A stretch of 39,050 nt of DNA from an uncultured Candidatus Saccharibacteria bacterium (GTDB lineage: Bacteria; Patescibacteriota; Minisyncoccia; Minisyncoccales; GWA2-38-27): assembly GCA_964470615.1 (NCBI GenBank), contig CAYYDH010000001.1, positions 1 to 39,050 of the forward strand, given 5' to 3'. Position 1 is the first letter of the stretch. Each line of letters begins with the position of its first letter. Position numbers and translations under genes: made by a program. The notes under the pieces were generated by a model, which saw only the letters and a list, made by a program, of their open reading frames with translations, was not told the DNA's origin and made no database searches. Positions 9,686 through 29,675 of the stretch are shown in pieces.

Positions 9686-10147
9686 CTAAGTAGATTCTTC
9701 TGGTTCTGGGGTACTTTCTCCCCCGCTTTCAAAAACCATCTGGAAAATGACATCAAAGATCATAAACCCGCCGATAAAAACTAACCCGACGGCGTCAGCA
9801 ATCCAAAAATCATCTAATCCAAAACAGAGGAGAATTAGCCCCACCAAATCCAGAATCAGCGCCAAGGGGAATATTATTAAACCAACTGGGTTGGTAAAAC
9901 CACCCGGGGTGCTGTTTAAATGATAGTAGACAGCGATTGTCCAGGCCGGGGCAACGCCTCCCAAATAAGGGACTATTTCTGCTAAAAGTCCGAGCCCAAG
10001 CCTTTTGAGGAGCTTTGTTAAGAGTTTTTTAGCGCTTTTGGTTAAAACAACTTTGCCCCTGCCCTTTTTTTCTTCCTGTTCTGGACCGGCCTCAGGGGAC
10101 GTTTCAGCAGCACTTTGCGAAGTTTTTTCTTCTTTGTCGTCGGGCAT
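9686..10147 (-). CDS. small membrane protein with acidic termini (hypothetical, T4SS-operon member)
   Basis: 153 aa with a charged N-terminus, 3-4 hydrophobic segments and an acidic tail (GGESTPEPEEST). It is tightly packed between the VirB4 gene and the pilin-like genes. Confidence 0.5.
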   Translation of the reverse strand: MPDDKEEKTSQSAAETSPEAGPEQEEKKGRGKVVLTKSAKKLLTKLLKRLGLGLLAEIVPYLGGVAPAWTIAVYYHLNSTPGGFTNPVGLIIFPLALILDLVGLILLCFGLDDFWIADAVGLVFIGGFMIFDVIFQMVFESGGESTPEPEEST

Positions 10148-12598: not shown

Positions 12599-12599
12599 G

Positions 12600-13010
12600 C
12601 TATTTTTTTCTTGTTTCTAAGCGGGTGAACAGGTCGCCCAGCCGGCTTTTTTTAGAAACTCTTAAAGACGACTCTGCTGTTTGTATTTCTTCTGGTACTG
12701 GTGGCTTTTCGATAATAATCGGCGGAACATTTTTCTTTTTCCATAGGTAAACCTTTGGCTTAAAAAGAAAAAAGAACATATTTTTTATAAAAATCGGCAG
12801 TGGTATTTTTTCTACCTTCAAAAAGGCCAGGGCGCAGGCTATTCCCATGATAAAAATTGTTATGGCAATAAAAACCTGGAGAGATGGGATCATGAAATAA
12901 AGGAAAAGGCAAAACCCGCCAGCGCTTCCTACAAAGACAAACTGTTTAAAAGTTAATGGGCCGACTATTTTTCCCTCTTTTTCTATAAATTGGGGGACAG
13001 TGAAGTTCAT
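12600..13010 (-). CDS. PrgI-family (VirB3-like) small membrane protein
   Basis: 136 aa. The N-terminus VPQFIEKEGKIVGPLTFKQFVFV followed by two TM helices is the PrgI-family pattern. It sits immediately upstream of VirB4. Confidence 0.6.
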   Translation of the reverse strand: MNFTVPQFIEKEGKIVGPLTFKQFVFVGSAGGFCLFLYFMIPSLQVFIAITIFIMGIACALAFLKVEKIPLPIFIKNMFFFLFKPKVYLWKKKNVPPIIIEKPPVPEEIQTAESSLRVSKKSRLGDLFTRLETRKK

Positions 13011-15665: not shown

Positions 15666-17398
15666 TCGAAAAAACGATCCCAGAACTATTTTTTGAGACA
15701 GTAAGCAAATACTCTGCTAAAGCCTCTCTTTTGTATAAGAAAGATGGCGTTTACTTTCCTATCACCTATCAAGAACTGTCAGAAAAGGTTAAAACGCTGG
15801 CTGCGGGTCTCCAAAAGTTCGGCGTGAAAAAAGAAGATAAGATTGCCATTCTTTCAGAAAACAGGCCCGAGTGGGTAATCTGCGACTTGGCTGCGATGTT
15901 TGTCGGCGGAATCGTCGTTCCTCTGCATACAACTTTAAACCCAAAGATTGTCGCCAATATTTTAAACCACTCGCAGGCTAAAATTCTTTTTGTTTCTAAT
16001 AGTGATTTGCTGAATAAGGTTTTGTTGGAAAAAGAGAACTTAGAACACCTGGAAAAGATTATTTTATTTGGCAAGCTGACTGACGCTCAGAAAGAAAGAT
16101 TTAAAGGGAAAATATTCAGCTGGGAAAGCTTGTTTATAAGAAACCAGGCAATGTCCTGCGAGAAAGTATTTTCTGACCCGGACGACGTTTGCAGTATTAT
16201 TTATACTTCCGGTACCACTGGTAACCCGAAGGGGGCTTTGCTTACTCATAAAAACTTTCTGAGTAATGTTGAAGCAGTTACCCAAGTAATACCGCTTAAA
16301 AAAAGCGATGTTTTTCTCTCTTTTCTTCCGCTTTCCCATGTTCTGGAAAGATTGGCTGGTTACTATGCTCCTCTTTTTTCCGGTTCTACGATCGCCTACG
16401 CTGAAGGTATTAAACAATTAGCAGTTAACTTGAAGGAAGTCAGGCCGACTATCTTGATTTCTGTTCCGCGGGTTTTTGAAAAGTTCCACGATACGATTTG
16501 GGATAAGATCAGAACCTCAAAATACAAGAATAGGTTTTTTGAGTGGGCGTTAAAACAGCGGAAAAAAAGCCTGAGGTACAAGATTGCTAACTTATTGGTT
16601 TTTAGGACAATAAGGGAACACTTAGGCGGCAGATTGCGCTTGGCAGTTTCTGGCGGAGCATCTTTAAATGAAAAAATAGGCCGCTTCTTTTTGAAAATAG
16701 GTGTTGTGGTGTTGGAGGGATACGGCTTGACCGAAACTTCTCCCGTGGTTGCAGTAAATCGGGAAAAAGATTTCAAGTTTGGCACAGTTGGTAAGCAACT
16801 TCCCGGGGTTAAGGTAAAGATTTCCAGCGATAAAGAGATTTTAGTTAAAGGTCCGAATGTAACCCAAGGTTATTTTAAAAACGAAGAAGTGACTAAAAGA
16901 TCCTTTGGCAAAGATGGCTGGTTCTATACCGGCGACCTGGGGTTTCTTGACCGAGAAGGGTTTTTAACCGTTATCGGCCGCAAAAAAGAAATGATTGTGA
17001 CTTCTGGCGGGAAGAATGTTTGGCCAGAGGTGATCGAGAACATTTTGAACAAAGACAGGTTTATTGTTAATTCAATGGTAATAGGTCATGGCCAGAAGTT
17101 TATATCCGCCCTGATTGTTCCTGACTGGGAAGAAGTCAGCTTGTTCTTAAAAGAGAAAAGCCTGGTAGCGCAGGAACCAGAAAAACTAGTAAATAGCCCT
17201 GAAATCCTGCGTGTTTTCCAGGAGAGAGTAGATCAAAAGATAAACCCAGGAGTTTCCGATTACGAAAGAATCAGGCGATTTAAACTAATTGCTCAGGATT
17301 TTTCTCATGAAAGAGAAGAATTGACCCCGACTTTAAAGTTGCGTCGCCATATAATAGAACAGCATTATAAGACAGAGATTGAAGAGATGTATTCTTGA
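15662..17398 (+). CDS. long-chain-fatty-acid-CoA ligase (AMP-forming, ANL superfamily)
   Basis: 578 aa with the AMP-binding signature IIYTSGTTGNPKGALLTHKN, plus GYGLTE, TGDLG and KLRR motifs. Confidence 0.9.
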   Translation: MIEKTIPELFFETVSKYSAKASLLYKKDGVYFPITYQELSEKVKTLAAGLQKFGVKKEDKIAILSENRPEWVICDLAAMFVGGIVVPLHTTLNPKIVANILNHSQAKILFVSNSDLLNKVLLEKENLEHLEKIILFGKLTDAQKERFKGKIFSWESLFIRNQAMSCEKVFSDPDDVCSIIYTSGTTGNPKGALLTHKNFLSNVEAVTQVIPLKKSDVFLSFLPLSHVLERLAGYYAPLFSGSTIAYAEGIKQLAVNLKEVRPTILISVPRVFEKFHDTIWDKIRTSKYKNRFFEWALKQRKKSLRYKIANLLVFRTIREHLGGRLRLAVSGGASLNEKIGRFFLKIGVVVLEGYGLTETSPVVAVNREKDFKFGTVGKQLPGVKVKISSDKEILVKGPNVTQGYFKNEEVTKRSFGKDGWFYTGDLGFLDREGFLTVIGRKKEMIVTSGGKNVWPEVIENILNKDRFIVNSMVIGHGQKFISALIVPDWEEVSLFLKEKSLVAQEPEKLVNSPEILRVFQERVDQKINPGVSDYERIRRFKLIAQDFSHEREELTPTLKLRRHIIEQHYKTEIEEMYS

Positions 17399-17862
17399 GG
17401 ATTATTGGTTCGGCCCATAAGAACATGGTAGATAAAATGGCTACTAATAATATAGTGGTTGCCGGAATTATTTTTCACGCCGGGAAGGTTTTAATTCTTC
17501 GGAGAAGTATCGACGAAGATATTTTTCCGGGGATGTGGGAACTTCCTAGCGGGAAGAAAAAGGCGTCAGAGAACATAACCGACTGTCTTTTTAGAGAGAT
17601 ATTAGAGGAAACAGGCCTAATGATTAAAATAATTCAGCTTGTTTCTTTTTTTGAGTATAAAATTACGAGAGATAAGAGAATAACAGAATCAATTCAGATA
17701 AATTACCTAGCAGAACCGGTTAATTTTAAGGAAGTGATTAAGTTAAGCGAAGAACATCAAAAATTTGCCTGGGTTGGAAAAAGAGAAATAAAAAAATACA
17801 ATCTTTCGGCAGAAACAAGGAGCGTGGTTAGTCAGGCATTTGCCGTTGTTCCTAAAAAATGA
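17395..17862 (+). CDS. NUDIX hydrolase
   Basis: A complete Nudix box is present: GKKKASENITDCLFREILEETGL (GX5EX7REUXEEXGU). The start is uncertain, either the TTG at 17395 or the ATG at 17425. Confidence 0.85.
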   Translation: MRIIGSAHKNMVDKMATNNIVVAGIIFHAGKVLILRRSIDEDIFPGMWELPSGKKKASENITDCLFREILEETGLMIKIIQLVSFFEYKITRDKRITESIQINYLAEPVNFKEVIKLSEEHQKFAWVGKREIKKYNLSAETRSVVSQAFAVVPKK

Positions 17863-18036: not shown

Positions 18037-18831
18037 CTACTCAAATAATTTAAAAATTTTCCTCGCATTTTTATAGAAAACTTTTTTCCTTTCTTCTCCA
18101 GTAATGCTTAAAAGGTTTATTAGGTCAATATGTTTTTCAATATTACACATCGGCCAGTCGGTGCCAAAGATAACACTGGCGTCTCGGCGCTTGATTGTTT
18201 TAGTTAGAATCTTTTGGACTTTTTTAATGCCGCCGCTTGCTTTTATTACTTCTGGGTCTGCCAAAGCAGAAGTGTCAAAATAGATGTTTTCGAAACCGTT
18301 AGTAGTTTTAAAACAATAATCTAATTTAGGCCAAAAATAATGGGCGATAATAATCTTTAATTTTGGAAAACTTCGGGCAATTTTAGTTATGTATTTTGGA
18401 TCATTGTATTTTGCGCATTTTCTGTCGTTCGGGTTGATTCCCGTATGAATAATTAACGGGTAATTATATCTTAGACATAGCTTATAAACGGGCATCCATC
18501 TTTTGTCGGTAGGGTATACTGGATCATGGCCAGGGAAGATTTTAAAACCCTTAATTATTTTCTTGCTGAATAGCTCTTCAATCTTTAACAAATTCTTTTT
18601 GTTAATTTCATTGACCTTAAGGGTCCCTACAGTGGATAACCGCGGTTCGTCCTTTATCAGGCGGGCTATAGTGTCTAGATCCGCGCAATTAGAGTTTTTC
18701 TGGTTATCAGGGATAATAATCGCGTGCTCGACTCCATTTTTATCCATATTTAAAAGCAGCTCTTTTTTTATTTCAGAAAAAGCTTTCTTGCCCTTGTCGT
18801 AAGATAGATGAGTATGAACGTCTATTATCAT
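18037..18831 (-). CDS. metal-dependent amidohydrolase (TatD / amidohydrolase_2-like TIM barrel)
   Basis: 264 aa with the N-terminal MIIDVHTHL metal motif, internal IIHTG and IIAHY, and a C-terminal FGTDWP...NARKIF. Confidence 0.8.
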   Translation of the reverse strand: MIIDVHTHLSYDKGKKAFSEIKKELLLNMDKNGVEHAIIIPDNQKNSNCADLDTIARLIKDEPRLSTVGTLKVNEINKKNLLKIEELFSKKIIKGFKIFPGHDPVYPTDKRWMPVYKLCLRYNYPLIIHTGINPNDRKCAKYNDPKYITKIARSFPKLKIIIAHYFWPKLDYCFKTTNGFENIYFDTSALADPEVIKASGGIKKVQKILTKTIKRRDASVIFGTDWPMCNIEKHIDLINLLSITGEERKKVFYKNARKIFKLFE

Positions 18832-18932: not shown

Positions 18933-19154
18933 TTGGCTTCTGCAAGGGGCGAGTTCTGCGTAGCAGGGAAATACTACTTTGTTATAGACACGGACAATAG
19001 TGTTTACCCTTGTACCTTTCTTTCTTCGCCGCAATTCAAGATCGGCGTATGGGAAAACGGCCAGATAAAGATTACAAGACCCGTTTCTCATGACGGCAGT
19101 TTTTGCGTGGCAGAAAGAGAGCTTATTACTAGCACGCTATCAGGCGTTGCTTAG
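18933..19154 (+). pseudogene. truncated C-terminal (SPASM/twitch-like) fragment of a radical SAM enzyme
   Basis: CVAGKYYFVIDTDNSVYPC matches the C-x-A-G...G/N-x-V-x-P-C auxiliary-cluster motif. No radical-SAM core precedes it. The frame stays open upstream into the amidohydrolase start region without an ATG. Confidence 0.5.
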
Positions 19155-19155
19155 G

Positions 19156-19179
19156 GCCGGCGCTTTGCGCTGGCTTTTT
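19156..19179 (+). terminator. intrinsic terminator
   Basis: GCCGGCGC-TTT-GCGCTGGC (one G-U pair) followed by TTTTT. Confidence 0.6.
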
Positions 19180-19186
19180 ATATAAT

Positions 19187-19215
19187 TTGACATTCTCCGT
19201 TTTAGTAGTTAGAAT
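19187..19215 (+). promoter_or_regulatory. promoter in front of the first GC-rich gene
   Basis: aaTTTGACA context: TTGACA (19187..19192), a 17-nt spacer, then TAGAAT (19210..19215). Confidence 0.5.
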
Positions 19216-19305
19216 AAATTTAGTTCGCCGAGAACGGCCTGCGCTTAGCTTGCCGAAGCATTCTCGGCTTTAAAAACAGATAATCAGGAAGAGGGAGAGA
19301 CAGAT

Positions 19306-20925
19306 ATGAACGGGAAACACGGGATCTGGCTGTTAGGACTGGTCACCTTTCTGGTTCTGGGCTCTGGAGCGGCAGCCGATGAAGCTACGGATGCTTTTGA
19401 GTCGCTTTATGGCGACGAAATGAAGCAAGTTTCATCTACGCCGTCGCCGGCAGACAACGTAGTTTTGGCAGCCAAACTTTTAGAGGCTGCCCGAGGAATT
19501 GCCGAACAACCAGCTTTTCTCACCGTGCTTTGCGAAAAGGTTTACGAGCTTGGCGCCGAGGATTTGACCGGGTATCCTGCTGCTGTATTTGCCATGGAGC
19601 TCCTGGCTGAAAAGGCGCCCGATAAGAAGGTAGAGTGTCTTCAGAAATGCGCTTCTCTTGTCCAGGGCGAGTACTCTAAGGTTCGCGACGAAGCGAAGAA
19701 AAGAACAGGCTGTTTGCTTGTTCTGGCGCTGAAGAACGTTGCTGATGCCCAGGTTTCTCTTGGTGACTTGGATAGTGCCACAGCGACGCTGAGACAAGCC
19801 ATGGACGTAGCTTCCTCCGCCGGTTTTTCTTCGTCAGCCCTTCAAGCCAAGCTGACCACGCTTTTGCGGCAGCAGGCGGCAGAGAAACAAACTACTGCTT
19901 TAAAGGTTAAGCTTGTAGCCAACCCCAACGACACTGCTTCGCGCAAGAAACTGGTTCATCTGTATTTGGTAGAATTGGACAATGCGGCCGAAGCAGCTAA
20001 CTTCCTTGGAGAGACCTTGGACGGAACGACGCGAAAGCATGTACCCGAAGCTAGCATGCCTATCGACGAAGTCCCGGAAACGGTTTGCCTGGGACTTGCC
20101 AAATGGTACGCTAGCTTAGCCGAAACACCGGTGATGACAAGCAGGGCTGCCATGCTTTGGCGAGCCAAAGCATACTATGAGAGATTTCTTGACCTTCATC
20201 GGGTGCAAGACCTTTCTAGGGCCGCTAATACTTTAGCCCTGAATAAGGTTGAGGAATCTTTGGCAAAACTCGGGCCAACGAGCCAGCAAAGCAATGGGTC
20301 AAGCTCTTGGATCGACTGCTTGAGGCTGGTCGAACTGCCAAGGCACGCAGTCAGCGGGAAGTGGGAGAGGAAAGGTACCCAGCTCTTCGTTGCCGAAGAG
20401 GGGAAAAGCTGTCTTGCCACTATTCCGCTTTCACCGGAATCAAGCTACCAACTGCAGGTTGTCTTCACGAAAGTATCGGGTAACGGTCAGGTTGGTGTTG
20501 CTCTGCCCATTAAGTCCGCGTCCTGCGACATTGTCCTGCAGCCTGATATTTTCGGACTCGAGAAGATAAAAGAGGAAAACGGCAAAGAGGGCGGGAAATG
20601 GGTTGGTTTCGGTCCAGTTGTCAGCGGACGGGACTACTGCCTGGATATCAAGGTTGAAATCCGCGGTAGCCAGGCTGCCATTGATACGGGCTTGGACGGC
20701 AAATGCCTTATTCAATGGCAAGGACCGTCTTCTTCGCTCCGAGCCACTCCAGGGTGGTCTTTGCCGGAAACCAAGTTCCTAAAGCTGCATGCCTGGAATG
20801 CTGCGGTCCTATTTCGCAGCGTACGTCTGAAGGCAGCTCCAGAGGAACCTAAGGTGCTCAGCCAAGCCTTGTTAGACTATATCAACAACAAGGCTGCGTT
20901 TTTCGGCGTAGCGCCTAAGAAGTGA
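19306..20925 (+). CDS. secreted protein: helical (TPR-like) N-domain plus beta-rich C-domain (possibly ConA-like/DUF1080-like)
   Basis: 539 aa with a signal peptide (MNGKHGIWLLGLVTFLVLGSGAAADE) and a GGGAGAG Shine-Dalgarno sequence 7 nt upstream. The C-terminal pattern is GKWERKGTQLFVAEEG...YQLQVVFTKVSGNGQVGVAL. GC is high (36/60 in 19321..19380). Confidence 0.7.
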   Translation: MNGKHGIWLLGLVTFLVLGSGAAADEATDAFESLYGDEMKQVSSTPSPADNVVLAAKLLEAARGIAEQPAFLTVLCEKVYELGAEDLTGYPAAVFAMELLAEKAPDKKVECLQKCASLVQGEYSKVRDEAKKRTGCLLVLALKNVADAQVSLGDLDSATATLRQAMDVASSAGFSSSALQAKLTTLLRQQAAEKQTTALKVKLVANPNDTASRKKLVHLYLVELDNAAEAANFLGETLDGTTRKHVPEASMPIDEVPETVCLGLAKWYASLAETPVMTSRAAMLWRAKAYYERFLDLHRVQDLSRAANTLALNKVEESLAKLGPTSQQSNGSSSWIDCLRLVELPRHAVSGKWERKGTQLFVAEEGKSCLATIPLSPESSYQLQVVFTKVSGNGQVGVALPIKSASCDIVLQPDIFGLEKIKEENGKEGGKWVGFGPVVSGRDYCLDIKVEIRGSQAAIDTGLDGKCLIQWQGPSSSLRATPGWSLPETKFLKLHAWNAAVLFRSVRLKAAPEEPKVLSQALLDYINNKAAFFGVAPKK

Positions 20926-20938
20926 GGAAACAAATTAA

Positions 20939-20978
20939 AGCGTGGTAGATGAAATCTTCTATCACGCTTTTTCTTTTT
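20939..20978 (+). terminator. intrinsic terminator
   Basis: An 11-bp stem, AGCGTGGTAGA / TCTATCACGCT (one G-U pair), followed by TTTTTCTTTTT. Confidence 0.7.
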
Positions 20979-21032
20979 GCTAGAATGTCGTTCTGGGGCG
21001 GTAAAACAACCGCTTCAAGAGATAGGTAAAAT

Positions 21033-21061
21033 TTGACTAAGATTTATGAATCTAGCATAAT
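21033..21061 (+). promoter_or_regulatory. promoter in front of the second GC-rich gene
   Basis: aaaaTTTGACT context: TTGACT (21033..21038), a 17-nt spacer, then CATAAT (21056..21061). Confidence 0.45.
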
Positions 21062-21123
21062 ATAATAAGAAGCACGGTGCAGTTCTTTGAGAATTGAAAA
21101 ACCAAACGGAAGGGAGAACCAAA

Positions 21124-22617
21124 ATGATGCGCGCAAGAACGATGCTGGGTTTGCTGCTGGTTGCAGGGATGGTAGGATTTGTTGTCGCAACGGCGTCTGC
21201 TGAAGCCCCGCAACAGTTTTTCCCTGGCCAAGAAATCCAGGTGAAAGATCAAATGGTCGGTCCGACGAGGCACTATGTTGTGTACTTGCCCAGCGACTAC
21301 GTAGCCGAACGCTCTTGGCCTGCTATTTTTTGCTACCACGGGAAAGGCGGCAGGCCGATAACGCTTCCCTACAAAGACTTTACCGACGGCAAGGGTTTTG
21401 TTCTTGTGGGTATGGACTATTTCTGGGACAGCATGAACGTCCACAGCGAAATCGGCCAGGATGTGCGGAATATCAAACGGCTTGTCCCGCAACTAGCCAA
21501 ACAGTTGAACCTGGATCCCAACCAGTTGTTTATCGCCGGCAACAGCGCCGGCGGATTCGCGGCCAGCGGTATTGCCGAAGCCACGCCGTCTTTTTGGGCA
21601 GGCGTTATGATTTTAGGCGCTGGACGATATGAAAATCTTCATAAGCGTCCAGCTATTCTTCCTGGCACAGGTTCTTCTTTCCCGATCTCGGGATTTGGTG
21701 TCGCAATGCCGAAAAGGCCCAAAGACGCCAATTCGCTCGCAGGTAGAGGCATCTATTTGGGGGCGGGTGAGCGGGATACAAATCTTTGGTGGGCCGAAAC
21801 AGCTAGAGATTATTACCAAAGTATCGGAGCCGATGTCACCTTCGAAACTTATAAAGGCGTCGGTCACGGAACTTATCCCGGTACAGAGGTAATAAAGAAC
21901 TGGCTCTATTCAAACGGGCCCTTGAAACAAGCAGAAAGCGGGATAGGCAAAGCCCAGGCTATGCAAAACTCCGGAGAACTGGGAAAAGCCTACGAGCTGT
22001 TTGTTGCGCTAGCTTCATTGACAGGAAACAATGAGAAGCTGGCCGAGATTCTGGGCCAGGCTGCTAAAGCAGCCAATCAGCTGGCCGGCGACGCTGAGGC
22101 AAGGATTGGAGCAGCTGAAACCGCGGCGGCCGATGGTCGCTACGAAGAAGCGCTCAAGATTCTTTCTCGGGTTTCCGCTTCCTACAAGGGCTCTAGTTTC
22201 GGCGGACGAGCAAAAGTCCTTATACCCAAGATGCGGGGCGAGGCGAATGCTAGGAAAAACGCTGAACAGTCCCGGGCGCTTGAGCTTGAGGGCAAGGCCA
22301 GAGAAGCAGAGAAGGTCAAAGATTACCTTACCGCCTTCAAGCTCTACGAGCAGTATCTTACGCTGTTCAAAGGGATTGCTCGGTATGAGTTCGTTAAGAA
22401 CCACTTTGAGTCGCTGAAAGCCGACCCAAAGATTCAGGACGTTCTCCACAAGCAGGAAGCTGATCGCGATTGCCCAGGATGGCTTAAGGAAGCAGACAGG
22501 CTTCTTGAAGAGGGCAAAAACGACGAGGCAAAGCGGCGCTTGCAGAGAATCTTAGATAAGTACGGAGATACGGATTGGGCCGGAAAAGCGAAAGAACGGC
22601 TCAAGAAATTGGACTAG
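21124..22617 (+). CDS. secreted alpha/beta-hydrolase (esterase/depolymerase-like) with a helical TPR-like C-terminal half
   Basis: It has a signal peptide (MMRARTMLGLLLVAGMVGFVVATASAEA), HGKGG, the nucleophile elbow GNSAGG and GVGHG. I prefer the ATG at 21124, which has a GGGAG Shine-Dalgarno sequence, over the TTG at 21094. GC is high (39/60 in 21541..21600). Confidence 0.8.
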   Translation: MMRARTMLGLLLVAGMVGFVVATASAEAPQQFFPGQEIQVKDQMVGPTRHYVVYLPSDYVAERSWPAIFCYHGKGGRPITLPYKDFTDGKGFVLVGMDYFWDSMNVHSEIGQDVRNIKRLVPQLAKQLNLDPNQLFIAGNSAGGFAASGIAEATPSFWAGVMILGAGRYENLHKRPAILPGTGSSFPISGFGVAMPKRPKDANSLAGRGIYLGAGERDTNLWWAETARDYYQSIGADVTFETYKGVGHGTYPGTEVIKNWLYSNGPLKQAESGIGKAQAMQNSGELGKAYELFVALASLTGNNEKLAEILGQAAKAANQLAGDAEARIGAAETAAADGRYEEALKILSRVSASYKGSSFGGRAKVLIPKMRGEANARKNAEQSRALELEGKAREAEKVKDYLTAFKLYEQYLTLFKGIARYEFVKNHFESLKADPKIQDVLHKQEADRDCPGWLKEADRLLEEGKNDEAKRRLQRILDKYGDTDWAGKAKERLKKLD

Positions 22618-22623
22618 CACTTT

Positions 22624-22653
22624 GAAGCGCTTCGACAACCGAAGCGCTTTTTA
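22624..22653 (+). terminator. intrinsic terminator ending the GC-rich island
   Basis: GAAGCGCTTCG-ACAAC-CGAAGCGCTT followed by TTTTATTAT. Confidence 0.75.
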
Positions 22654-22713
22654 TTATGCTAGCTAGCCTCGGCGCTTAGTGCTAGTTTTATTTTTGGGTG
22701 GAAATGTTAAAAT

Positions 22714-22742
22714 TTGACTTTCTAGATTTATATTATATAAAT
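22714..22742 (+). promoter_or_regulatory. promoter of the AT-rich radical-SAM operon
   Basis: aaaaTTTGACT context: TTGACT (22714..22719), a 17-nt spacer, then ATAAAT (22737..22742). The ATG at 22754 is only 11 nt further on and no Shine-Dalgarno sequence is present. Confidence 0.4.
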
Positions 22743-22753
22743 AAGTATCAGAT

Positions 22754-23920
22754 ATGAATAAATATTTATCAGTCCTGAAAGGTAAAACTATAAGTATTCC
22801 CTATAATAATGACCCGAACTTGATTAAAGAGCTTGGGGAATTTTTGGTCGGCTCGCGGAATTTCGATATTTACATTTACTTCGCGCCCAGTCTCTTTATC
22901 ACCAATGCGGGAAGAAAAATGCCAAACCTCAAAAGCTATATTCATAAAGGGAAGTTTAATACGAATAAATTTGACAAAGAACTTTCCGGCGCCTTGAAGC
23001 AGGCAAAAAAATATGGCTTCAAAACCAGCCTACTTTTGAATAATGTATTGCTCGGAATTCCCCACTCCAATAATGATATTAAAAAGACTATTCCTAAAAT
23101 ACAAAAATATTTAGAGCTATTGAATCACGATAAAATTTTAGATAGGGTGACCATATCAAATCCCTATCTTTTAGAGCTTATAAATTGGAAAAAGATGCCG
23201 AACGTTGAAATAAAAACTTCCGTTAACCTCCAAATTAAAAGCGCAAAATCCATAGAACTTTTGGATAATATTTCAAGGTTCTGGCTAAACAAAAAGGTTG
23301 ATTCCATTGAGATTCAGAAAGATTTACTCAGGAATATTGAGATGCTGCGGGCGATAAGGAGAAGAGTCGGCGGGAAAACCAAGCTTTCAATAATTGTAAA
23401 CGAGGGGTGTTTGATCGGTTGTCCCTATCAAATGGCCCACCAGCTTTATGCTTTTTCTTTCCCTTACGGCAATGGAAAAATTAAAAAAAATGATCTTTCC
23501 TTTAATATTGCAAAATGTAAATATATTACAAAGAAGGAGCCATGGCGCATTTTGGATTCAAATTGGATACTTCCCTCTTGGCTAAGACATTATTCAAAAA
23601 TTGTAGACGAATTCAAGTTAACGGATAGAGATGCTTCTACTGAAAATATAATGTATATAGTAAAAGCTTATACTACCGGCATTTACGATAAGAAAAATTT
23701 ATGCAGATTAATAAGCCTACTTAGCATGGAAAAATTTTCATTTCCTGAATCTGCCTTGCCAAAATATTTTTACAAGAAAATCTTGTCTGGAGCAGTAAAA
23801 AACAACAATTATTATAAAAAAATTTGGAAGAATATTTCTGCTTACAATAAATTGAAACCATCTATCGGTCTCAAAGGATTGCAAAAAGATAAACTATACC
23901 AATTTATAGGAAACAATTAA
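22754..23920 (+). CDS. peptidase-U32-family-like protein (TIM-barrel, putative Fe-S)
   Basis: 388 aa. The block order resembles U32 proteins: FKTSLLLNNVLLG, DRVTISNPYLLELI, VEIKTSVNLQIKS, VDSIEIQKDLLRNIEMLRAI, LSIIVNEGCLIGCPYQ. This was recognised by eye only. Confidence 0.4.
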   Translation: MNKYLSVLKGKTISIPYNNDPNLIKELGEFLVGSRNFDIYIYFAPSLFITNAGRKMPNLKSYIHKGKFNTNKFDKELSGALKQAKKYGFKTSLLLNNVLLGIPHSNNDIKKTIPKIQKYLELLNHDKILDRVTISNPYLLELINWKKMPNVEIKTSVNLQIKSAKSIELLDNISRFWLNKKVDSIEIQKDLLRNIEMLRAIRRRVGGKTKLSIIVNEGCLIGCPYQMAHQLYAFSFPYGNGKIKKNDLSFNIAKCKYITKKEPWRILDSNWILPSWLRHYSKIVDEFKLTDRDASTENIMYIVKAYTTGIYDKKNLCRLISLLSMEKFSFPESALPKYFYKKILSGAVKNNNYYKKIWKNISAYNKLKPSIGLKGLQKDKLYQFIGNN

Positions 23921-24005
23921 TACCCTTAATTTTATAAAAATCTTTTTAGCGACAAGCGATCAAAAAGGGAAAGATATAAAATCCTTAATCAGGACGGGAT
24001 TTTAC

Positions 24006-24848
24006 GTGTCATTCTCTGAAGATGTTTTTGAAAACGGCGATAAATACAACGAGTTGCTCCGGGCAGTTCCTCAAAACAGATTGCTGATAAACAATAAGAA
24101 AGATTTTCTAATTAATGAGAATGAAAAATTAGATGCCTTTCATAAGATTGCTGAAAAAATATCTTCGGCAAGAAAAAACGCCAGTAAAGAAGATATTTTA
24201 AGAATAGCCTCTTATAATGCCGCAAAGGTTTTCGACATGCAAAATGAGCTCCCGGATAAATATATATATAAAATTAGAAACTCATTATATATAAACGTTA
24301 CCAATCGTTGTACAAATAATTGTGATTTTTGTCCTCGTTTAATAGAGCCCGTGGTAAAAGGCCATTACCTAAAAATCAAAAAAGAGCCGGGCGCCAAAGA
24401 TATTATAGACCGCATAAATGCGTTAGGAGACCCTAGAAAATTCGACGAGATTATTTTTTGCGGGTATGGAGAGCCTACTACTCGATTGGATGTCGTAAAA
24501 GGAATCGCTAAATGGCTAAAAGATAAAGGTTGCAAGACAAGAATAAATACAAACGGGCACGCAAATCTCATCGCCAAAAAAGATGTACTCACTGAATTAA
24601 ATGGCTTGTTTGATATAATTTCCATAAGCCTCAATTTTCACTCATCAAAATTATATGATAAGCATTGCCATCCGGTCTTTAAAAATACATGGGATGGAAT
24701 TTTAGATTTTGCAAAAAAAGCCAGGGAAGTTTCGCCGAAGGTTATTCTATCCGTTGTCAGCGGAGCAAAAGATGTTGATGTAGAAAAATGCCGAAAAATT
24801 GCAGAGAAAATCGGCGTAAATTTCAGAGAAAGGACTTATTATAAATAA
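24006..24848 (+). CDS. radical SAM protein (TatD-associated type) with an in-frame TatD-C-terminus-like N-extension
   Basis: CX3CX2C motif CTNNCDFC, and FCGYGEPT. The N-terminal 77 aa (VPQNRLLINN...KEDILRIASYNAAKVFDM) look like the end of a TatD hydrolase with the ETD residues lost. The track start is a GTG at 24006. An internal ATG at 24237 would give an enzyme of about 203 aa. Confidence 0.7.
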   Translation: MSFSEDVFENGDKYNELLRAVPQNRLLINNKKDFLINENEKLDAFHKIAEKISSARKNASKEDILRIASYNAAKVFDMQNELPDKYIYKIRNSLYINVTNRCTNNCDFCPRLIEPVVKGHYLKIKKEPGAKDIIDRINALGDPRKFDEIIFCGYGEPTTRLDVVKGIAKWLKDKGCKTRINTNGHANLIAKKDVLTELNGLFDIISISLNFHSSKLYDKHCHPVFKNTWDGILDFAKKAREVSPKVILSVVSGAKDVDVEKCRKIAEKIGVNFRERTYYK

Positions 24849-24849
24849 T

Positions 24850-25692
24850 ATGCAAATCAATAAAGAAATAGAAATACCATTCGCGGCAATACAGCTTACA
24901 AACAGATGTAATTTGAACTGCCAATTTTGTTTTAGAAGAAGAGTCACCGAAGAATTGTTTCTGACTATAGAAAAAATCATAAAAAACCTTAAAGTATGCA
25001 ACGTGAAATCCCTTGTCTTGTCGGGTGGGGAGCCGCTTTTAAGAAGCGACATTAAAGAAATATTGAAATTATGTAGGGAACTAAAAATAGGAAGTGTGCT
25101 TCAGTCGAACGGCGTTATTTTAGAAAAAAATCTGCCGGAAATTTTGCCATATATAGATTGGCTTTCAGTTTCATTAGATGGAGATACGGCAGAAAAAAAT
25201 TCCTTAATGAGGAGCAGAGAGCAATTTAATGCAATCGTCAAAGTGCTCCCGCTTATTAAAAAAAATAATATAAACGTAAAGCTTGGGACGGTTGTCAGTA
25301 AAAAAAATTATGAAAATATCGAGGGCATTGGAAATTTAATAAAGCCGTACGTTACGATCTGGAAGTTGTACCAATTCTATCCCCGGTTCAATACTGCTGC
25401 CGGTGACAATCAGGAGCAGTTCATAATCGAAGATTACTTATTCAGAGAAGTGGCAGAAAAAATAAAGAAAAAATTTCCTGATATGCGTATCTCGACACAC
25501 ACAGTTGAAGAATTTAATAAAAGTCCCTGCTTGTTGATAGATCCGAATGGCAAAGTTTATGTCACTAAGGAGAATAAAGATTGCTTTATCGGTGACGTTC
25601 TAAACGATCCCGACGGCTTTATTAAAAATTATGAAAAAATGGGCATAGCTGAGGAAATACAAAAAAACTTTGAAAAAACATATAAAAATTAA
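24850..25692 (+). CDS. radical SAM protein, viperin-like architecture
   Basis: CNLNCQFCF (Cys20 at nt 24907), LSGGEPLL, SNGVIL, SVSLDGD. The C-terminal half has IWKLYQFYP and PCLLIDPNGKVYV, which line up with human RSAD2 blocks RWKVFQCL and SYLILDEYMRFL (recalled from memory). Confidence 0.75.
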   Translation: MQINKEIEIPFAAIQLTNRCNLNCQFCFRRRVTEELFLTIEKIIKNLKVCNVKSLVLSGGEPLLRSDIKEILKLCRELKIGSVLQSNGVILEKNLPEILPYIDWLSVSLDGDTAEKNSLMRSREQFNAIVKVLPLIKKNNINVKLGTVVSKKNYENIEGIGNLIKPYVTIWKLYQFYPRFNTAAGDNQEQFIIEDYLFREVAEKIKKKFPDMRISTHTVEEFNKSPCLLIDPNGKVYVTKENKDCFIGDVLNDPDGFIKNYEKMGIAEEIQKNFEKTYKN

Positions 25693-25703
25693 CCTATAAA
25701 AAT

Positions 25704-26348
25704 ATGAAAAACATAGGCCAATACGACGATGAATATTCTAAATGCCCTTGCTTTTGGGGTACGGAACCTGCGAAATATGTGAAACTAGTTCCAAAATATT
25801 TTTCTTCAGGTAGTGCATTAGATTTAGGAGCTGGAGAAGGGAAAAATAGCGCGTATCTCGCTTCTCTTGGTTTTAATGTTACGGCGATTGAAGTTTCGCT
25901 ATATGCTGTTAGAAACTTTATCAGTTGGCTTTTAAAAAATAAGGAGAAGAGCGATTCTATTGCGGAAAAAATTGACATAATCTGCGCAGACGTAAGAAAA
26001 CTGGACGGATTAATCAATAAAAAATATAATGTCGTAATTGCCTATGGGCTTTTGCATTGCTTCAAATCTAAAAGCGAGATAGCTGACTTTGTGAATAAAA
26101 TGAAAGATAAAACTGCAAAAGGAGGCATAAATGTTATCAGTACATTCACAGACGAGGCGCCAATACCAGAAATTCAGGATTATTTAGTCCCTACCCTATT
26201 GTCCAAAAATGAGCTAAAAGACACATTCTACAAAGATTGGGAAATTCTTGATTATGAACATGGCTTTATTGAGCACACTCATCCTACTTCTCAAACAATG
26301 CACAAGCACGGCCTATGCAGAATGATTGCGAAAAAAAATAAGCCATAG
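25704..26348 (+). CDS. class I SAM-dependent methyltransferase, TehB-like
   Basis: 214 aa with CPCFWGTEPAKYV, motif I LDLGAGEGKNSAYLA and VTAIEVS. Confidence 0.8.
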   Translation: MKNIGQYDDEYSKCPCFWGTEPAKYVKLVPKYFSSGSALDLGAGEGKNSAYLASLGFNVTAIEVSLYAVRNFISWLLKNKEKSDSIAEKIDIICADVRKLDGLINKKYNVVIAYGLLHCFKSKSEIADFVNKMKDKTAKGGINVISTFTDEAPIPEIQDYLVPTLLSKNELKDTFYKDWEILDYEHGFIEHTHPTSQTMHKHGLCRMIAKKNKP

Positions 26349-26354
26349 ACTAAC

Positions 26355-27875
26355 TTGGAAAAAGATATTTTCAGCGAAAATAATTCTCGAATTTTGCGAA
26401 AATGGCTAATCGATAATGTAAAATTTACCGACAATAATTTGGCACTCAAAAAATCTTTTTACGCAGTGATGAACCCTATAAACTTTTGCCCAGTTGGATG
26501 TCCTCATTGCTTGTATTCATCCTTAAAACTTAAGAAACCTTTAGAACAGATAAACAGAAAAACAATGATGCAATTTATAAAAATTGCCAATCAGGCTAAG
26601 ATAAAAATGCTTGTATTTTCTGGCGGCGGCGAGCCTTTCGAAAATTTATCTATAATACTGGATGGCGTAAAAAAAATTAAAACACTAGAAGATGTGGTTA
26701 TAATAACGAGCGGCTATTTCGCAAAAGACAAAAAAACCGCAGAGCTAGTTCTCGAAAAAATTTATAAAGCCGCTAATTCAGATAGAAAAAAAATTGGATT
26801 AGAACCGCTTATAATAACTCTAAGGATAAGCCGAGATAATTCGCAATGCAAAACTGTTCCACTAGAGAACATCTTACATATTTTAAGGTATTTTATCAAA
26901 AAAAATGACTTTTTAAATTTTAGGGCGCTCATCAGGACGATATTGGACTATAATGAGAATAACGATGTTGAGTTGGCAAAAGATTTAAATTTAGAACTTC
27001 TACCCCCAAAAAATAATAAAAATCTCTATAAAAATCTGCCTATTATAGACGGGCTACCGGTAAGATGGATGATTGACAAAAATTATAATATTGAAATCCC
27101 CGTGATTTACAAACCCCTATATTTCGTTGGCAGAGTATCTAACACGAATTCAAAAAACATTCATTCTCTGTGGGGAATAGTAGAATCTGAAAAAAAATCA
27201 GGAACCCCTCTAAACCTTTGCACGCGAGGCCCAAAGGGCGAAGGGCATAACTATTACGAAACGCTTTTCAAAGGTTATAAAAACTGGAAAAAATCACCGC
27301 TACCCGTGCTAGACGTGCCCAAAAATAAGATTAAAAAAGAACTAGCCTTGTACGTTCCTGCGTCTGGTGATCTGCTTATCAATAACGGAGCTCCAGATAT
27401 CGCACCTTCTTTAAATAAATTAAACAACTGGAACCAATTTTTAAAAATAATTTATTCAGATCCTGTAGAAAGGCTTTTAATCGAAAAAGGACCGTTTTTT
27501 GTCAAAAATATAGCAAAAGAGGTAGAAAAAGATATTGACGAAAAAATAGATAAAACCAACTTTGTTTTTTCTATATCTCTATTAAGTCTCGTTACCCCAT
27601 CCTTGCGATTATATGCTACAATCAGAGCAATCCAATATTATCTGGATAGAAATAAACTAAGGCTGAAAAATCATCTTGTTAAAAAAATAACGGAACTAGA
27701 CTGGATTGACCTGTATAGTCAACACAAACAAGGCCTTTTTACCAAGGGAAAAAAGAAAAAAAGATATATGGATCCAATAACAGGAGATGCACAAAATATT
27801 GTACTGGGATACGAATTTGATACCAACACTTCCATAAAAACGATAAATATGCTATTATCTCAATATAGTGGCTGA
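26355..27875 (+). CDS. large radical-SAM-like protein of unknown family
   Basis: 506 aa with CX3CX2C CPVGCPHC and FSGGGEPFEN. About 300 aa of unrecognised Lys/Asn-rich C-terminal sequence follows. The start is a TTG, 7 nt after the methyltransferase stop. Confidence 0.6.
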   Translation: MEKDIFSENNSRILRKWLIDNVKFTDNNLALKKSFYAVMNPINFCPVGCPHCLYSSLKLKKPLEQINRKTMMQFIKIANQAKIKMLVFSGGGEPFENLSIILDGVKKIKTLEDVVIITSGYFAKDKKTAELVLEKIYKAANSDRKKIGLEPLIITLRISRDNSQCKTVPLENILHILRYFIKKNDFLNFRALIRTILDYNENNDVELAKDLNLELLPPKNNKNLYKNLPIIDGLPVRWMIDKNYNIEIPVIYKPLYFVGRVSNTNSKNIHSLWGIVESEKKSGTPLNLCTRGPKGEGHNYYETLFKGYKNWKKSPLPVLDVPKNKIKKELALYVPASGDLLINNGAPDIAPSLNKLNNWNQFLKIIYSDPVERLLIEKGPFFVKNIAKEVEKDIDEKIDKTNFVFSISLLSLVTPSLRLYATIRAIQYYLDRNKLRLKNHLVKKITELDWIDLYSQHKQGLFTKGKKKKRYMDPITGDAQNIVLGYEFDTNTSIKTINMLLSQYSG

Positions 27876-27879
27876 GACG

Positions 27880-28041
27880 CTGCTGACACAGCTGAGCCTA
27901 AGGAAGAAAGCCTAACGGCAAGTAGAACCTTACGGGAGTTCCCGTCATAGAACTAAATGAAGTTAAAAAGCGAGGTGGCACCGCGGAAAGACCGCCCTTG
28001 CAAGGTTATCAATTTTTGGTAACTTAGCAAGGGCAATTTTT
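27880..28041 (+). promoter_or_regulatory. T-box riboswitch leader controlling aspS
   Basis: The T-box sequence is AGCGAGGUGGCACCGCGG (27970..27986). An antiterminator can be drawn as A1 GAGG/CCUU, a 7-nt bulge UGGCACC (27976..27982) and A2 GCGG/CCGC. A mutually exclusive 16-bp terminator hairpin lies at 27994..28034, followed by AAUUUUUA. Confidence 0.7.
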
Positions 28042-28063
28042 ATTAAAATTAAAAAAGAAAAAC

Positions 28064-29347
28064 ATGGAAAGAATATTAATAAATCAAATAGAAAAAAAAG
28101 AAGGACAGAAAATAACGATTAAGGGTCGCATTTTAAACATGAGAAATCTCGGCAATGTTGTGTTTTTAATCGTCCAAGACTATACCGGCACCATACAGGT
28201 TGTTTTCAATAAGAGCGTAGAAGTTAAGATTGGAGATTCTGTCGCCATAGAGGGTGTCGCAGAAAAAGAGCCAAGGTCTAAATACGGTTTTGAAATACAG
28301 GGTGGAACCATAGAGGTTGTTTCTTCTGTTGTTGAAGACCTTCCTTTTGATTTAGCAAAGAATGATTTAAATTTAAATTTATCCACCCTTTTGGATTATC
28401 GCACACTCTCCCTGAGGCATCCAAAAGTGCAGGCAATTTTTAAGCTTTATGACATCTTTTTAAAAGGATACGAAACCGTTATGCGCGAGGAAGGATTCAC
28501 AGAAGTTAAAACTCCCAAAATTTTGGGAGTTGCAACAGAGGGCGGAGCAAACTTTTTCAAAGTTAAATACTTTGGTAAGGAAGCAACATTGGCTCAGAGT
28601 CCACAATTCTACAAGCAGATAATGGTTGGCGTTTTTGAAAGGGTTTTTGAGATCGGGTCCACCTTTCGTGCAGAGCCTCATTTTACTACAAGACACGTCA
28701 ACGAATATATTAGTTTAGACGCTGAAATGGGATATATAAAAGATTTCTATGACGTTATAGAAATGCTTAACAAGGTTTTGAAGAAAATATTCTTGATGAT
28801 TGAAAAAGAGGGAAAGCAATACCTAAATATGTACAACATTAAAATTTCAGAAGTTCCAGATAATATACCCATGGTAAAATTATCTGAGATAAGAAAAATT
28901 GTAAAAGAAAAATACAATTATTCAATTCCTGATGGTACAGATATTGATCCAGAAGGCGAAAGATTGGCTGGCAAATACACAAAGGAAGAATTCAATTCAG
29001 ATTTCATATTCATTACCCATTATCCCTGGAAAGAAAAGCCATTTTATACAATGCAGAGCAAAGAAAATCCGGAGGAAACTTACGGCTTTGATTTGATATA
29101 CAAAGGATTGGAAATAGTTACGGGCAGTCAGAGAATACATACCTACAAAGAGTTGATGGGGAACATGGGAAAGAAGAAAATAAAACCAGATGGAATGGAA
29201 TTCTACCTAGAAACCTTTAAATATGCTATGCCTCCGCACGGCGGTTGGGGTTGGGGTTCAGAGAGAACCATTCAACAAATTTTAGAATTACCAAGCATAA
29301 AAGAAGCCATATTATTTCCGCGAGATGTAAAAAGGCTAGTGCCGTGA
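28064..29347 (+). CDS. aspS: aspartyl-tRNA synthetase, archaeal/eukaryal-type (short, class IIb)
   Basis: 427 aa with an N-terminal OB fold, QSPQFYKQIM, motif 2 FRAEPHFTTRHVNEYISLDAEM and motif 3 PPHGGWGWGSER. Asp versus Asn specificity was not proven by eye. Confidence 0.8.
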   Translation: MERILINQIEKKEGQKITIKGRILNMRNLGNVVFLIVQDYTGTIQVVFNKSVEVKIGDSVAIEGVAEKEPRSKYGFEIQGGTIEVVSSVVEDLPFDLAKNDLNLNLSTLLDYRTLSLRHPKVQAIFKLYDIFLKGYETVMREEGFTEVKTPKILGVATEGGANFFKVKYFGKEATLAQSPQFYKQIMVGVFERVFEIGSTFRAEPHFTTRHVNEYISLDAEMGYIKDFYDVIEMLNKVLKKIFLMIEKEGKQYLNMYNIKISEVPDNIPMVKLSEIRKIVKEKYNYSIPDGTDIDPEGERLAGKYTKEEFNSDFIFITHYPWKEKPFYTMQSKENPEETYGFDLIYKGLEIVTGSQRIHTYKELMGNMGKKKIKPDGMEFYLETFKYAMPPHGGWGWGSERTIQQILELPSIKEAILFPRDVKRLVP

Positions 29348-29365
29348 ATAGAGCAAAGAAACAAA

Positions 29366-29396
29366 AATGAGCCCCTCTACGGCTCATTTTTTATTT
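29366..29396. terminator. bidirectional intrinsic terminator between aspS and the chorismate-mutase-like ORF
   Basis: AATGAGCC-CCTCTAC-GGCTCATT, flanked by an A-run upstream and a T-run downstream. Confidence 0.7.
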
Positions 29397-29675
29397 TTTA
29401 ACTTCTTCAACAACCGACGTCAGAATATCTCTTGCAAGCTGACTATTTATTCTTAATTTTGCAGCCAGCTTATCCGCTTTTCCCATTATTTCTGATTCCC
29501 TGTTTTTATCTTCTATCGGTAAACCTTTTTTCAATTTTAAGTTTTTTATCTTATTCGTAACCTTAAACCTTTTTGCTAATAACTTAATTAAGTCAGCATC
29601 AATTTTATCAATTTCCTTCCTAATTTTCCTAATCGTAAATTTTTCATATTTTATCTCTAATAAGATTATAACAAT
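29391..29675 (-). CDS. AroQ-type chorismate mutase (CM_2), open frame without a canonical in-frame start
   Basis: Hand translation gives ...EKFTIRKIRKEIDKIDADLIKLLAKRFKVTNKIKNLKLKKGLPIEDKNRESEIMGKADKLAAKLRINSQLARDILTSVVEEVKK*. This matches the LRxxIDxIDxxLLxLLxxR...K....P..D..RE pattern. The only nearby ATG (29647..29645) is one frame off. The ORF is not in the ORF track. Confidence 0.6.
   Translation of the reverse strand: MVIILLEIKYEKFTIRKIRKEIDKIDADLIKLLAKRFKVTNKIKNLKLKKGLPIEDKNRESEIMGKADKLAAKLRINSQLARDILTSVVEEVKK

Follow-up and report, generated by a model that had tools for sequence, protein, structure and literature searches.

A rare gene cluster of Patescibacteria linked to aspartyl-tRNA synthetase and its possible role in pyrimidine-nucleoside tailoring

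What could three radical S-adenosylmethionine (SAM) enzymes, a methyltransferase and a U32-like protein be doing side by side in the genome of an uncultured Candidatus Saccharibacteria bacterium? The corresponding genes, here named P1 to P5, lie in the first 39,050 nucleotides of contig CAYYDH010000001.1 (assembly GCA_964470615.1), a stretch that we refer to as the window; a first-pass annotation of this DNA had described them as an AT-rich five-gene operon matching no characterised pathway. The open reading frame (ORF) coordinates confirmed five plus-strand ORFs at 22754-27875 with the described spacings of 85, 1, 11 and 6 nt: P1 (22754-23920, 388 aa), a distant U32-fold TIM-barrel protein; P2 (ORF 24006-24848, 280 aa, GTG start, with a TatD remnant starting at ~23970), a TatD-associated radical SAM protein; P3 (24850-25692, 280 aa), a viperin/MoaA-like radical SAM enzyme; P4 (25704-26348, 214 aa), a TehB-like class I SAM methyltransferase; and P5 (26355-27875, 506 aa, TTG start), a radical SAM enzyme with an EpeE/YydG-like fold and a C-terminal helical extension. 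The data reported here indicate that P1-P5 are one variant of a rare, horizontally mobile cluster of the Candidate Phyla Radiation (CPR)/Patescibacteria, in which the gene most consistently linked is that for aspartyl-tRNA synthetase (AspRS). We propose, by analogy with albomycin and microcin C and with a probability of roughly 0.4, that the cluster might encode a pyrimidine-nucleoside antimetabolite pathway coupled to AspRS.

The organization of the cluster was analyzed in 40 loci from genomes and metagenomes (labelled L0xx), which were compared by ORF calling and clustering; the neighbourhoods of the window, L002, L004, L006, L007, L012, L014, L015 and L053 were annotated with Pfam and NCBIfam models, and the remaining loci were compared by sequence clustering. 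P5, the signature gene, is harbored by 37 of the 40 loci, P4 by 29 (always directly upstream of P5), P3 by 28, AspRS by 24 (30 genes), a ThyA-like protein by 18, P1 by 10 and P2 by 6, and a chorismate mutase gene (CM_2) is present in six loci and the window. P1 and the ThyA-like protein are mutually exclusive: loci with P1, the window included, are hereafter referred to as type A, and those with the ThyA-like protein as type B. The order P3-P4-P5 is kept down to 27-33% identity in Parcubacteria, Saccharibacteria, a lineage using genetic code 25 and soil lineages, with intact ORFs and invariant catalytic motifs, and dozens of metagenomic loci repeat this arrangement, far from what chance would produce, which answers the question of co-occurrence left by the first-pass annotation. 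P2 is absent from L014 and L021 and varies from 304 to 443 aa in other loci; P3 is absent from L027, where P4-P5 persist; and L020 (1-3111) is degenerate, with P2-P4 deleted and only the end of an AspRS gene, a 102-aa P1 fragment, P5, a chorismate mutase and an APH-like kinase left. The unit is therefore made up of an invariant core, P3, P4 and P5, and one of two alternative partners, and P2 is accessory. Since P2 is dispensable and P1 is replaced by the ThyA-like enzyme in most relatives, these genes do not form a fixed five-gene operon, as had been assumed; we nonetheless regard it as nearly certain that the cluster is a conserved functional unit.

This unit is rare. P5 corresponds to 31 clusters among 5.8 billion proteins, and P1 to 45 homologue clusters in the protein search; full-length P5 was found in four out of 185,579 species genomes, labelled as Saccharibacteria, Staskawiczbacteria and one 'Pseudomonadales' metagenome-assembled genome. 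The variable, mobile character suspected from the window alone is borne out by the integrases or recombinases that flank the cluster in L002, L014, L018 and L027. As for a placement in defence islands, restriction-modification or abortive-infection genes do flank the cluster in L004 and L014. A phage origin was rejected, as no relative was retrieved from 2.9 million viral contigs. The combination is described by no curated model, solved structure or paper found in the literature searched, and we file it as a variant of the aminoacyl-tRNA synthetase (aaRS)-linked nucleoside-tailoring clusters, outside any named family.

The linkage with AspRS was checked in the 14 loci having at least 4 kb of flank on either side of P5, and all 14 have an AspRS gene no more than 7 kb away from P5, even where P5 identity falls to 27-33% and whatever the relative orientation of the genes. 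Among the linked enzymes, at least three archaeal-type lineages can be told apart (with mutual identities of 35-42%), and the bacterial type occurs in L006, L033 and L053; the class II catalytic motifs are kept in all the cluster-adjacent copies. Two AspRS-type genes each are present in L011/L012, L014 and L032, the copies being counted within each locus. The aspS gene, previously taken as the mere boundary of the operon, thus turns out to be its most consistent neighbour, and the chorismate mutase gene beyond it is part of the system as well. Clusters that keep, duplicate or import the gene for one aaRS are a hallmark of pathways making aminoacyl-adenylate mimics. The idea that the linked enzymes represent a specialised AspRS clade was only partly borne out, the window AspRS being of an ordinary type and the catalytic motifs being kept in all copies.

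L053 offers the clearest example. Its genome has a GC content of 22% and reads UGA as Gly (code 25), and almost all the Gly codons of P1, P3, P4, P5, a NUDIX gene, the native 606-aa bacterial-type AspRS and an S66 peptidase are TGA (8-28 per gene). Two further genes at 7185-9828, located among these TGA-rich ones and coding for an archaeal-type AspRS (436 aa) and an AsnRS-like paralogue (439 aa, below all curated cut-offs), contain no TGA and have a GC content of 37%. The lack of TGA codons, together with the 37% vs 22% GC, identifies these two genes as recent imports, which came very recently from an organism using the standard code. The imported AspRS is closest (50-60% identity) to the cluster-adjacent AspRSs of other lineages. 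Moreover, the cluster or its AspRS genes have an S66 peptidase of the MccF/LdcA family as a neighbour in L014 (4261-5250), L024 (contig start) and L053 (9875 to the end), that is, in three loci of two distant lineages, with a score of 108 bits vs 378 for the LdcA model. Overall, we consider a functional link between the cluster and AspRS to be very probable.

In the window, aspS (28064-29347, plus strand) encodes an archaeal-type non-discriminating AspRS (aspartate-tRNA(Asn) ligase; NF003483, 518 bits) with intact class II motifs. With more than 120 homologues at least 70% identical, and 92-93% identity to the Nealsonbacteria enzymes of cluster-less relatives, it belongs to the ordinary housekeeping type of Parcubacteria. 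Relatives without the cluster whose AspRS is 81-92% identical have unrelated neighbourhoods around this gene. An 83%-identical block common to the window and to the cluster-less Nealsonbacteria locus L048 begins at 27846 and holds aspS and its leader; hence the cluster looks inserted, at 22712-27846, immediately upstream of this unit.

The leader itself (27865-28042, plus strand) had been annotated as a T-box. This assignment is supported by a match to Rfam RF00230 at 27865-28002 (34 bits, E=3e-6), which nevertheless remains below the gathering score of 93. The element includes a GGUGGCACCGCG box, a terminator hairpin at 27995-28033 followed by a U-run, and GAC in the apical loop of a short Stem I; its fold has a z-score of -3.0, and most of Stem I is missing, 74 model positions being replaced by 4 nt. 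The same element occurs in L014 (11503-11640, 38 bits). On these sequence features, we treat it as a putative reduced T-box, and reduced T-boxes of CPR bacteria would be missed by standard annotation. Since the leader overlaps the P5 stop codon, read-through from the cluster into aspS is likely. A bidirectional terminator-like hairpin (29363-29391) separates aspS from the chorismate mutase gene.

The exchange between P1 and the ThyA-like protein bears on the substrate. The ThyA-like protein matches the CMP 5-hydroxymethylase MilA at 5e-28, vs ~1e-6 for thymidylate synthases, and all its members have retained the catalytic Cys together with the phosphate-binding motif MRAN. It is thus predicted to modify C5 of a pyrimidine mononucleotide; to our knowledge, the known members of the ThyA/MilA superfamily act only on mononucleotides. 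An invariant Asn occupies the position that we take to be Asn177 of E. coli ThyA, where MilA has Asp, and this residue, as in the dUMP enzymes, implies that the base may be uracil rather than cytosine. As for P1, those U32 enzymes that have been characterised take oxygen from prephenate to hydroxylate either quinone rings or, in RNA, the C5 position of U or C (PMC6599085, PMC5727448, PMC10990095). In the window, a chorismate mutase gene (29391-29647, minus strand) is convergent with aspS; it was detected with Pfam CM_2 (7e-17 on 29394-29636) and by tblastn with the L002 chorismate mutase. Its only ATG (29647) is one base out of the domain frame, at a homopolymer run in which one extra A would restore MKKFTIRKIRKEID..., so that the frame break represents either a sequencing error or a fresh pseudogene. 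CM_2 adjoins type A loci only (the window, L002, L014, L015/L017, L020 and L025) and none of the type B loci, and in L015 chorismate synthase and shikimate kinase genes also flank the cluster.

This genomic coupling of P1 and CM_2 suggests a prephenate-dependent C5 hydroxylation by P1. In the simplest reading, the two alternative partners would have equivalent roles on the same pyrimidine nucleotide, C5 hydroxylation by P1 and C5 hydroxymethylation by the ThyA-like enzyme. A nucleotide, one of the substrates considered in the first-pass annotation, is the best guess, and we judge a pyrimidine-nucleotide substrate to be rather probable. Nucleotide-related genes also lie around some clusters: in L053, P5 is immediately followed by a NUDIX gene, L002 contains an APH-type kinase and a phosphoribosyltransferase, and L004 also has an APH-type kinase. 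Between the ThyA-like gene and AspRS of L031 (9428-12042), there are a PNP_UDP-type nucleosidase, a second methyltransferase and an aaRS-core-like gene, whose 322-aa product resembles the catalytic core of methanogen-type SerRS or amino acid-[acyl carrier protein] ligases.

The analysis of the five proteins agrees with the families first assigned to P1-P4 and revises that of P5. P1 scores 12.4 bits (E=0.09) against Pfam U32 (PF01136), on profile positions 2-71 only and below the gathering score of 22.4, and a profile search against Protein Data Bank (PDB) sequences retrieved nothing; it is the fold search that revealed its affinity. The AlphaFold2 model of P1, with a mean predicted local distance difference test (pLDDT) score of 84, has as its top Foldseek match the U32 peptidase Mk0906 (5d88; E=1e-7; TM-score of 0.64 relative to target length), the next match being three orders of magnitude weaker. 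Homologue alignments identified the invariant residues C219, C223, H229 and C255, a C-x3-C-x31-C spacing plus a His that departs from what we take to be the U32 pattern. The segment IIVNEGCLIGCPYQ, formerly given as the end of P1, is internal (residues 213-226). A P1 homologue (41% identity) also occurs outside the cluster in L052 (3197-6642), where the next genes code for a fusion of GTP cyclohydrolase II with a PfkB kinase and for a protein with an FRG domain, in a setting of glycosyltransferase genes; this context gives the P1 family a second setting, also of nucleotide flavour.

The reported cysteine motifs were all present: CTNNCDFC in P2, CNLNCQFC in P3, and CPVGCPHC, together with GGGEP, in P5. 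P2 exceeds the cut-off of TIGR04038 (247 vs 129.7 bits), a family itself without known function, and scores 27.5 bits against the viperin model NF038283. Its orthologues are TatD-radical SAM fusions of 358-443 aa, and in the window only Pfam TatD positions 173-252, about the last 75 residues of the domain, are left; the full-length L002 fusion aligns by tblastn from its residue 149. P3 is viperin-like, as had been proposed, with NF038283 as its top NCBIfam match and the PADLOC model of prokaryotic viperins (pVip) at E=1.6e-29, and its PDB matches include GDGT-MAS, viperins, MoaA and BlsE. Since it reaches 92 bits against a cut-off of 180, P3 was rejected as a canonical pVip, again in agreement with the previous assignment. 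P4 matches Pfam TehB (6e-19) and the TehB homologue 3m70 (3e-15). P5 had been described as a radical SAM protein with a large half of no assigned nature; in its AlphaFold2 model (pLDDT 86), the closest fold is that of the epimerase EpeE/YydG (Foldseek E=3e-9; TM-score of 0.65-0.70 relative to EpeE length), which is also the best sequence match among solved structures (1e-10), followed by an extra helical domain of ~180 aa. Its only invariant cysteines are the three of the radical SAM CxxxCxxC motif.

A reading of P5 as the enzyme of a ribosomally synthesised and modified peptide (epipeptide) was rejected: P5 scores 35 bits against TIGR04078 (cut-off 300), lacks auxiliary Fe-S cysteines, and the gaps of 85, 1, 11 and 6 nt together with the T-box-holding stretch of 188 nt leave no room for a precursor gene. 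The Mqn, TYW, Que, MoaA and PqqE models gave generic radical SAM-level matches only. Membership tests against curated thresholds failed in every case except TIGR04038, which is also the only NCBIfam equivalog above its cut-off, so the earlier statement that the cluster corresponds to no characterised pathway holds.

Concerning substrate, chemistry, product and target, we infer the following scheme. P1, a U32-fold Fe-S or metal protein, would hydroxylate C5 of a pyrimidine nucleotide, with oxygen from prephenate made by the neighbouring chorismate mutase, and in type B loci the MilA/ThyA-type enzyme would do the equivalent job by C5-hydroxymethylation. P3 and P5 would modify the ribose, or the substituent that it bears, by radical chemistry, P4 would methylate, and P2 would be an optional extra. 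The product would be a C5-modified nucleoside-type antimetabolite, either mimicking aspartyl-adenylate or aspartylated through Asp-AMP or Asp-tRNA from AspRS. Either role would make sense of the AspRS genes retained, duplicated and freshly gained beside the cluster, for supply and/or self-protection, as in the case of the albomycin synthetase AbmK; by analogy with such systems, we put forward the AspRS-directed antimetabolite tentatively, at odds somewhat short of even.

The comparison with known systems defines both the appeal and the limits of this scheme. Albomycin has a cytidine-derived warhead (SB-217452), and its pathway includes a methyltransferase, two radical SAM enzymes (one an epimerase) and the SerRS AbmK for Ser-AMP supply and resistance (PMC8323819, PMC9092360). 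The cluster shares with it a SAM methyltransferase, which in albomycin acts on the base, two radical SAM enzymes (P5 having the fold of a radical SAM epimerase), a cognate aaRS gene and, as proposed here, a pyrimidine nucleoside scaffold; a carbamoyltransferase lies near some cluster relatives (L012; P0219). However, the window cluster has no pyridoxal phosphate-dependent enzymes, non-ribosomal peptide synthetase/siderophore carrier or exporter, Ser would be replaced by Asp as the amino acid, the host is a CPR bacterium and not a Streptomyces, and a C5 (hydroxy/hydroxymethyl) step and a prephenate link are added. This comparison is one of pathway descriptions, with no demonstrated homology to AbmJ, AbmM, AbmI or AbmF. 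The enzyme inhibited by microcin C-type compounds is AspRS; the cytidine variants of these compounds depend on carboxy-SAM made from prephenate, and MccF is an S66 peptidase (PMC8323819, PMC9092360); some microcin C clusters include an AspRS gene that gives immunity (PMC8323819). The likeness thus involves AspRS as target or partner, the prephenate-dependent cytidine variants, the S66 peptidase and the extra AspRS of some clusters. On the other hand, the annotated neighbourhoods contain no MccA peptide, ThiF-like MccB or MccC pump, the prephenate user would be a U32-fold protein and not a CmoA-like carboxy-SAM synthase, and the microcin C pathway has no radical SAM enzymes.

Extra AspRS-type genes, as in aaRS-linked antibiotic clusters, are found in L011/L012, L014, L032 and L053, whereas the window has the housekeeping type only. 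With the U32 hydroxylases TrhP, RlhA and UbiU/UbiV, P1 shares the TIM-barrel fold, a Cys cluster after a late beta-strand and the coupling to a chorismate mutase/prephenate supply, but it differs in its C-x3-C-x31-C plus His arrangement instead of four Cys, in its radical SAM/methyltransferase operon and in the proposed free-nucleotide substrate. P3 aligns over nearly the whole viperin model, has a similar size and plausibly acts on a nucleotide; unlike a pVip, it reaches about half the curated score, has no kinase partner in the window, belongs to a multi-enzyme cluster and is dispensable in at least one locus. P5, despite its best match being EpeE/YydG, has neither the auxiliary Fe-S Cys nor a precursor peptide gene and carries the extra helical domain. 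Finally, the type B loci harbor a structural-family relative of MilA (mildiomycin) and BcmA (bacimethrin) with the catalytic Cys; no such enzyme is present in the window, the base-specifying residue is Asn vs Asp in MilA, and there are no MilB/MilC-type partners.

Several points weigh against an AspRS-coupled antimetabolite. The annotated neighbourhoods contain no exporter, carrier peptide, siderophore module or ThiF-like MccB, and no transporter is conserved across the clustered loci. An AbmF-like aminoacyl transferase is absent from the window and otherwise missing too, apart from the aaRS-core-like gene of L031; as far as this can be tested, none of the proteins has an orthologue among the albomycin, microcin C or agrocin enzymes. 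The sole AspRS adjacent to the cluster in the window being of the housekeeping type, a divergent resistant copy is not present here; moreover, part of the AspRS adjacency in Parcubacteria may be inherited synteny, as the window and L011 share several other neighbours. With regard to P1, the protein does not reach the U32 threshold of Pfam, only three of its Cys are invariant instead of four, and the U32 hydroxylases that we know of act on RNA or quinones and not on free nucleotides. In the cluster-less L048 (1107-3303), genes for a prephenate dehydratase and an aminotransferase lie close to aspS; the lineage thus metabolises prephenate even without the cluster, which slightly weakens the case for a chorismate mutase dedicated to P1. 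Lastly, distant relatives of P5 carry UPRTase, HD, PHP, His-phosphatase and carbamoyltransferase domains, a further pointer to nucleotides, but these 'fusions' may be run-on gene calls and were therefore taken as neighbourhood hints only.

In principle, the same genes could serve other functions. They might form a viperin-type anti-phage system, in which P3 makes a 3'-deoxy-3',4'-didehydro pyrimidine nucleotide that P1 or the ThyA-like enzyme, P4 and P5 decorate into a chain terminator. The fact that viperin models are the best matches of P3 would fit this scenario, as would the placement of several loci among restriction-modification, AbiEi, helicase/PIN and integrase genes and the presence of the nucleotide-cleaning genes NUDIX, Ham1 and CYTH nearby. 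Nevertheless, P3 remains at 92 bits where 180 are required and is missing in L027 while P4-P5 persist, the cluster was not found in viral contigs, and the AspRS linkage, the imported AspRS copies and the S66 peptidase are left unexplained; the defence role first suggested for these genes thus appears unlikely. No more probable, in our view, is a modification of rRNA or of tRNA-Asp/tRNA-Asn, where a tailored C5-pyrimidine in or near the anticodon loop would alter recognition and AspRS would co-evolve. tRNA-Asp and tRNA-Asn share G34-U35, the linked genes code for AspRS and in L053 also for an AsnRS-like protein, the window aspS is a housekeeping gene under a T-box, and the characterised RNA-acting U32 enzymes (TrhP, RlhA) all hydroxylate C5 of U or C with prephenate. 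What speaks against RNA is that the replacement of P1 in 18 loci belongs to the mononucleotide-type ThyA/MilA superfamily and keeps its phosphate-binding motif, that Pfam detected no RNA-binding domain (PUA, THUMP, TRAM) in the five proteins, that no tRNA gene adjoins the cluster in the nine loci checked, and that a repeated import of extra AspRS copies would be unexpected for a modification pathway.

A further scenario would be a pyrimidine-derived cofactor or antivitamin pathway (bacimethrin-like or thiamine-pyrimidine-like), with AspRS kept nearby by regulation or history alone. Bacimethrin biosynthesis is built around a MilA-type hydroxymethylase and a methyltransferase, and CPR bacteria lack many cofactor pathways. 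Yet type A would yield a 5-hydroxy and not a 5-hydroxymethyl product, no glycosidase or ThiD-like kinase was found, four species out of 185,579 are too few for an essential cofactor route, and neither the AspRS linkage nor the xenologous AspRS copies are accounted for, which makes this pathway very unlikely. One could also regard the genes as a chance juxtaposition of decaying sequences without joint function, since the window has a shortened TatD part in P2 and a chorismate mutase whose start codon does not match the domain frame, and L020 is degenerate; this is effectively refuted by synteny, with the P3-P4-P5 order kept at 27-33% identity, intact ORFs and invariant catalytic motifs, and we assign it a negligible probability.

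The cluster is more AT-rich than the backbone, as had been noted (34.1% GC vs ~40% in the flanks; 18/60 G+C at 23041-23100), but the bias is moderate and the low GC content extends past the cluster, through aspS (36%) to ~32 kb. Homology to the sister loci L014, L015 and L024 starts at 22712, after the terminator-like hairpin (22624-22650) with which the upstream gene ends. Promoter-like hexamers (TTAAAA-16/18-TATATT/TATTAT, 22707-22736, plus strand) do exist ahead of P1, as a consensus match only; as evidence for a promoter of its own, they lose weight, such matches being no commoner than in shuffled sequence (25 found vs 24.6 expected). No plus-strand terminator-like site was detected within the five genes, and Rfam searches at the gathering threshold and tRNA scans gave no match in the window. 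The radical SAM pseudogene thought to lie next to the cluster was not found: the scan for CxxxCxxC ORFs revealed no other such ORF in the window, and tblastn with P1-P5 and homologues from related loci gave no further matches outside the cluster.

To the left of the cluster, a GC-rich island (19000-22650, 51% GC) contains an ORF of 539 aa assigned to no family (19306-20925) and one of 507 aa, esterase-like plus TPR (21094-22617). The island occupies the position that a second, divergent AspRS has upstream of P1 in the closest relatives L014 and L024. The independent assembly L001 spans window positions 22640-27946 only; the assemblies thus break at both cluster edges, which suggests a strain-variable junction or a chimeric join. 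Beyond the island lie an amidohydrolase (18037-18831) and a NUDIX hydrolase (17395-17862), weakly NudI/pyrimidine-NTP-diphosphatase-like, which may once have belonged to the cluster neighbourhood, since in L053 the gene next after P5 is a NUDIX one. Genes resembling those of type IV secretion (pilin/TrbL, PrgI and a VirB4/TraG-like ATPase) are located ~10 kb upstream in the window (10153-13010) and directly after the cluster in L010 (12607-17240) and L032; they could be either shared synteny or a delivery route. On the whole, the truncated TatD domain, the out-of-frame chorismate mutase start and the absence of the upstream AspRS indicate that the system may be eroding in the window.

The genomes of CPR/Patescibacteria are minimal, and specialised metabolites are believed to be few in these bacteria; AspRS is a validated antibiotic target. 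The broadest claim that could be made is that CPR episymbionts carry a new class of AspRS-directed nucleoside antimetabolite pathways, with prephenate-dependent hydroxylation of a free pyrimidine nucleotide by a U32 protein, two unrelated radical SAM enzymes and a methyltransferase finishing the warhead, and AspRS genes that the producers retain and repeatedly import for protection or supply; in this full form we hold it to be rather doubtful. P1 and P5 would define two new protein families, and the natural swap between a U32 hydroxylase and a MilA-type hydroxymethylase offers a handle on the chemistry. If the proposal were true, P1 would have the first small-molecule nucleotide substrate of the U32 family, and the use of prephenate as oxygen donor by U32 enzymes would extend beyond RNA and quinones. 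Furthermore, the cluster would represent the first target-linked natural-product pathway described in Patescibacteria, implying chemical warfare or control aimed at AspRS, and possibly a weapon in symbiont-host or symbiont-symbiont conflict.

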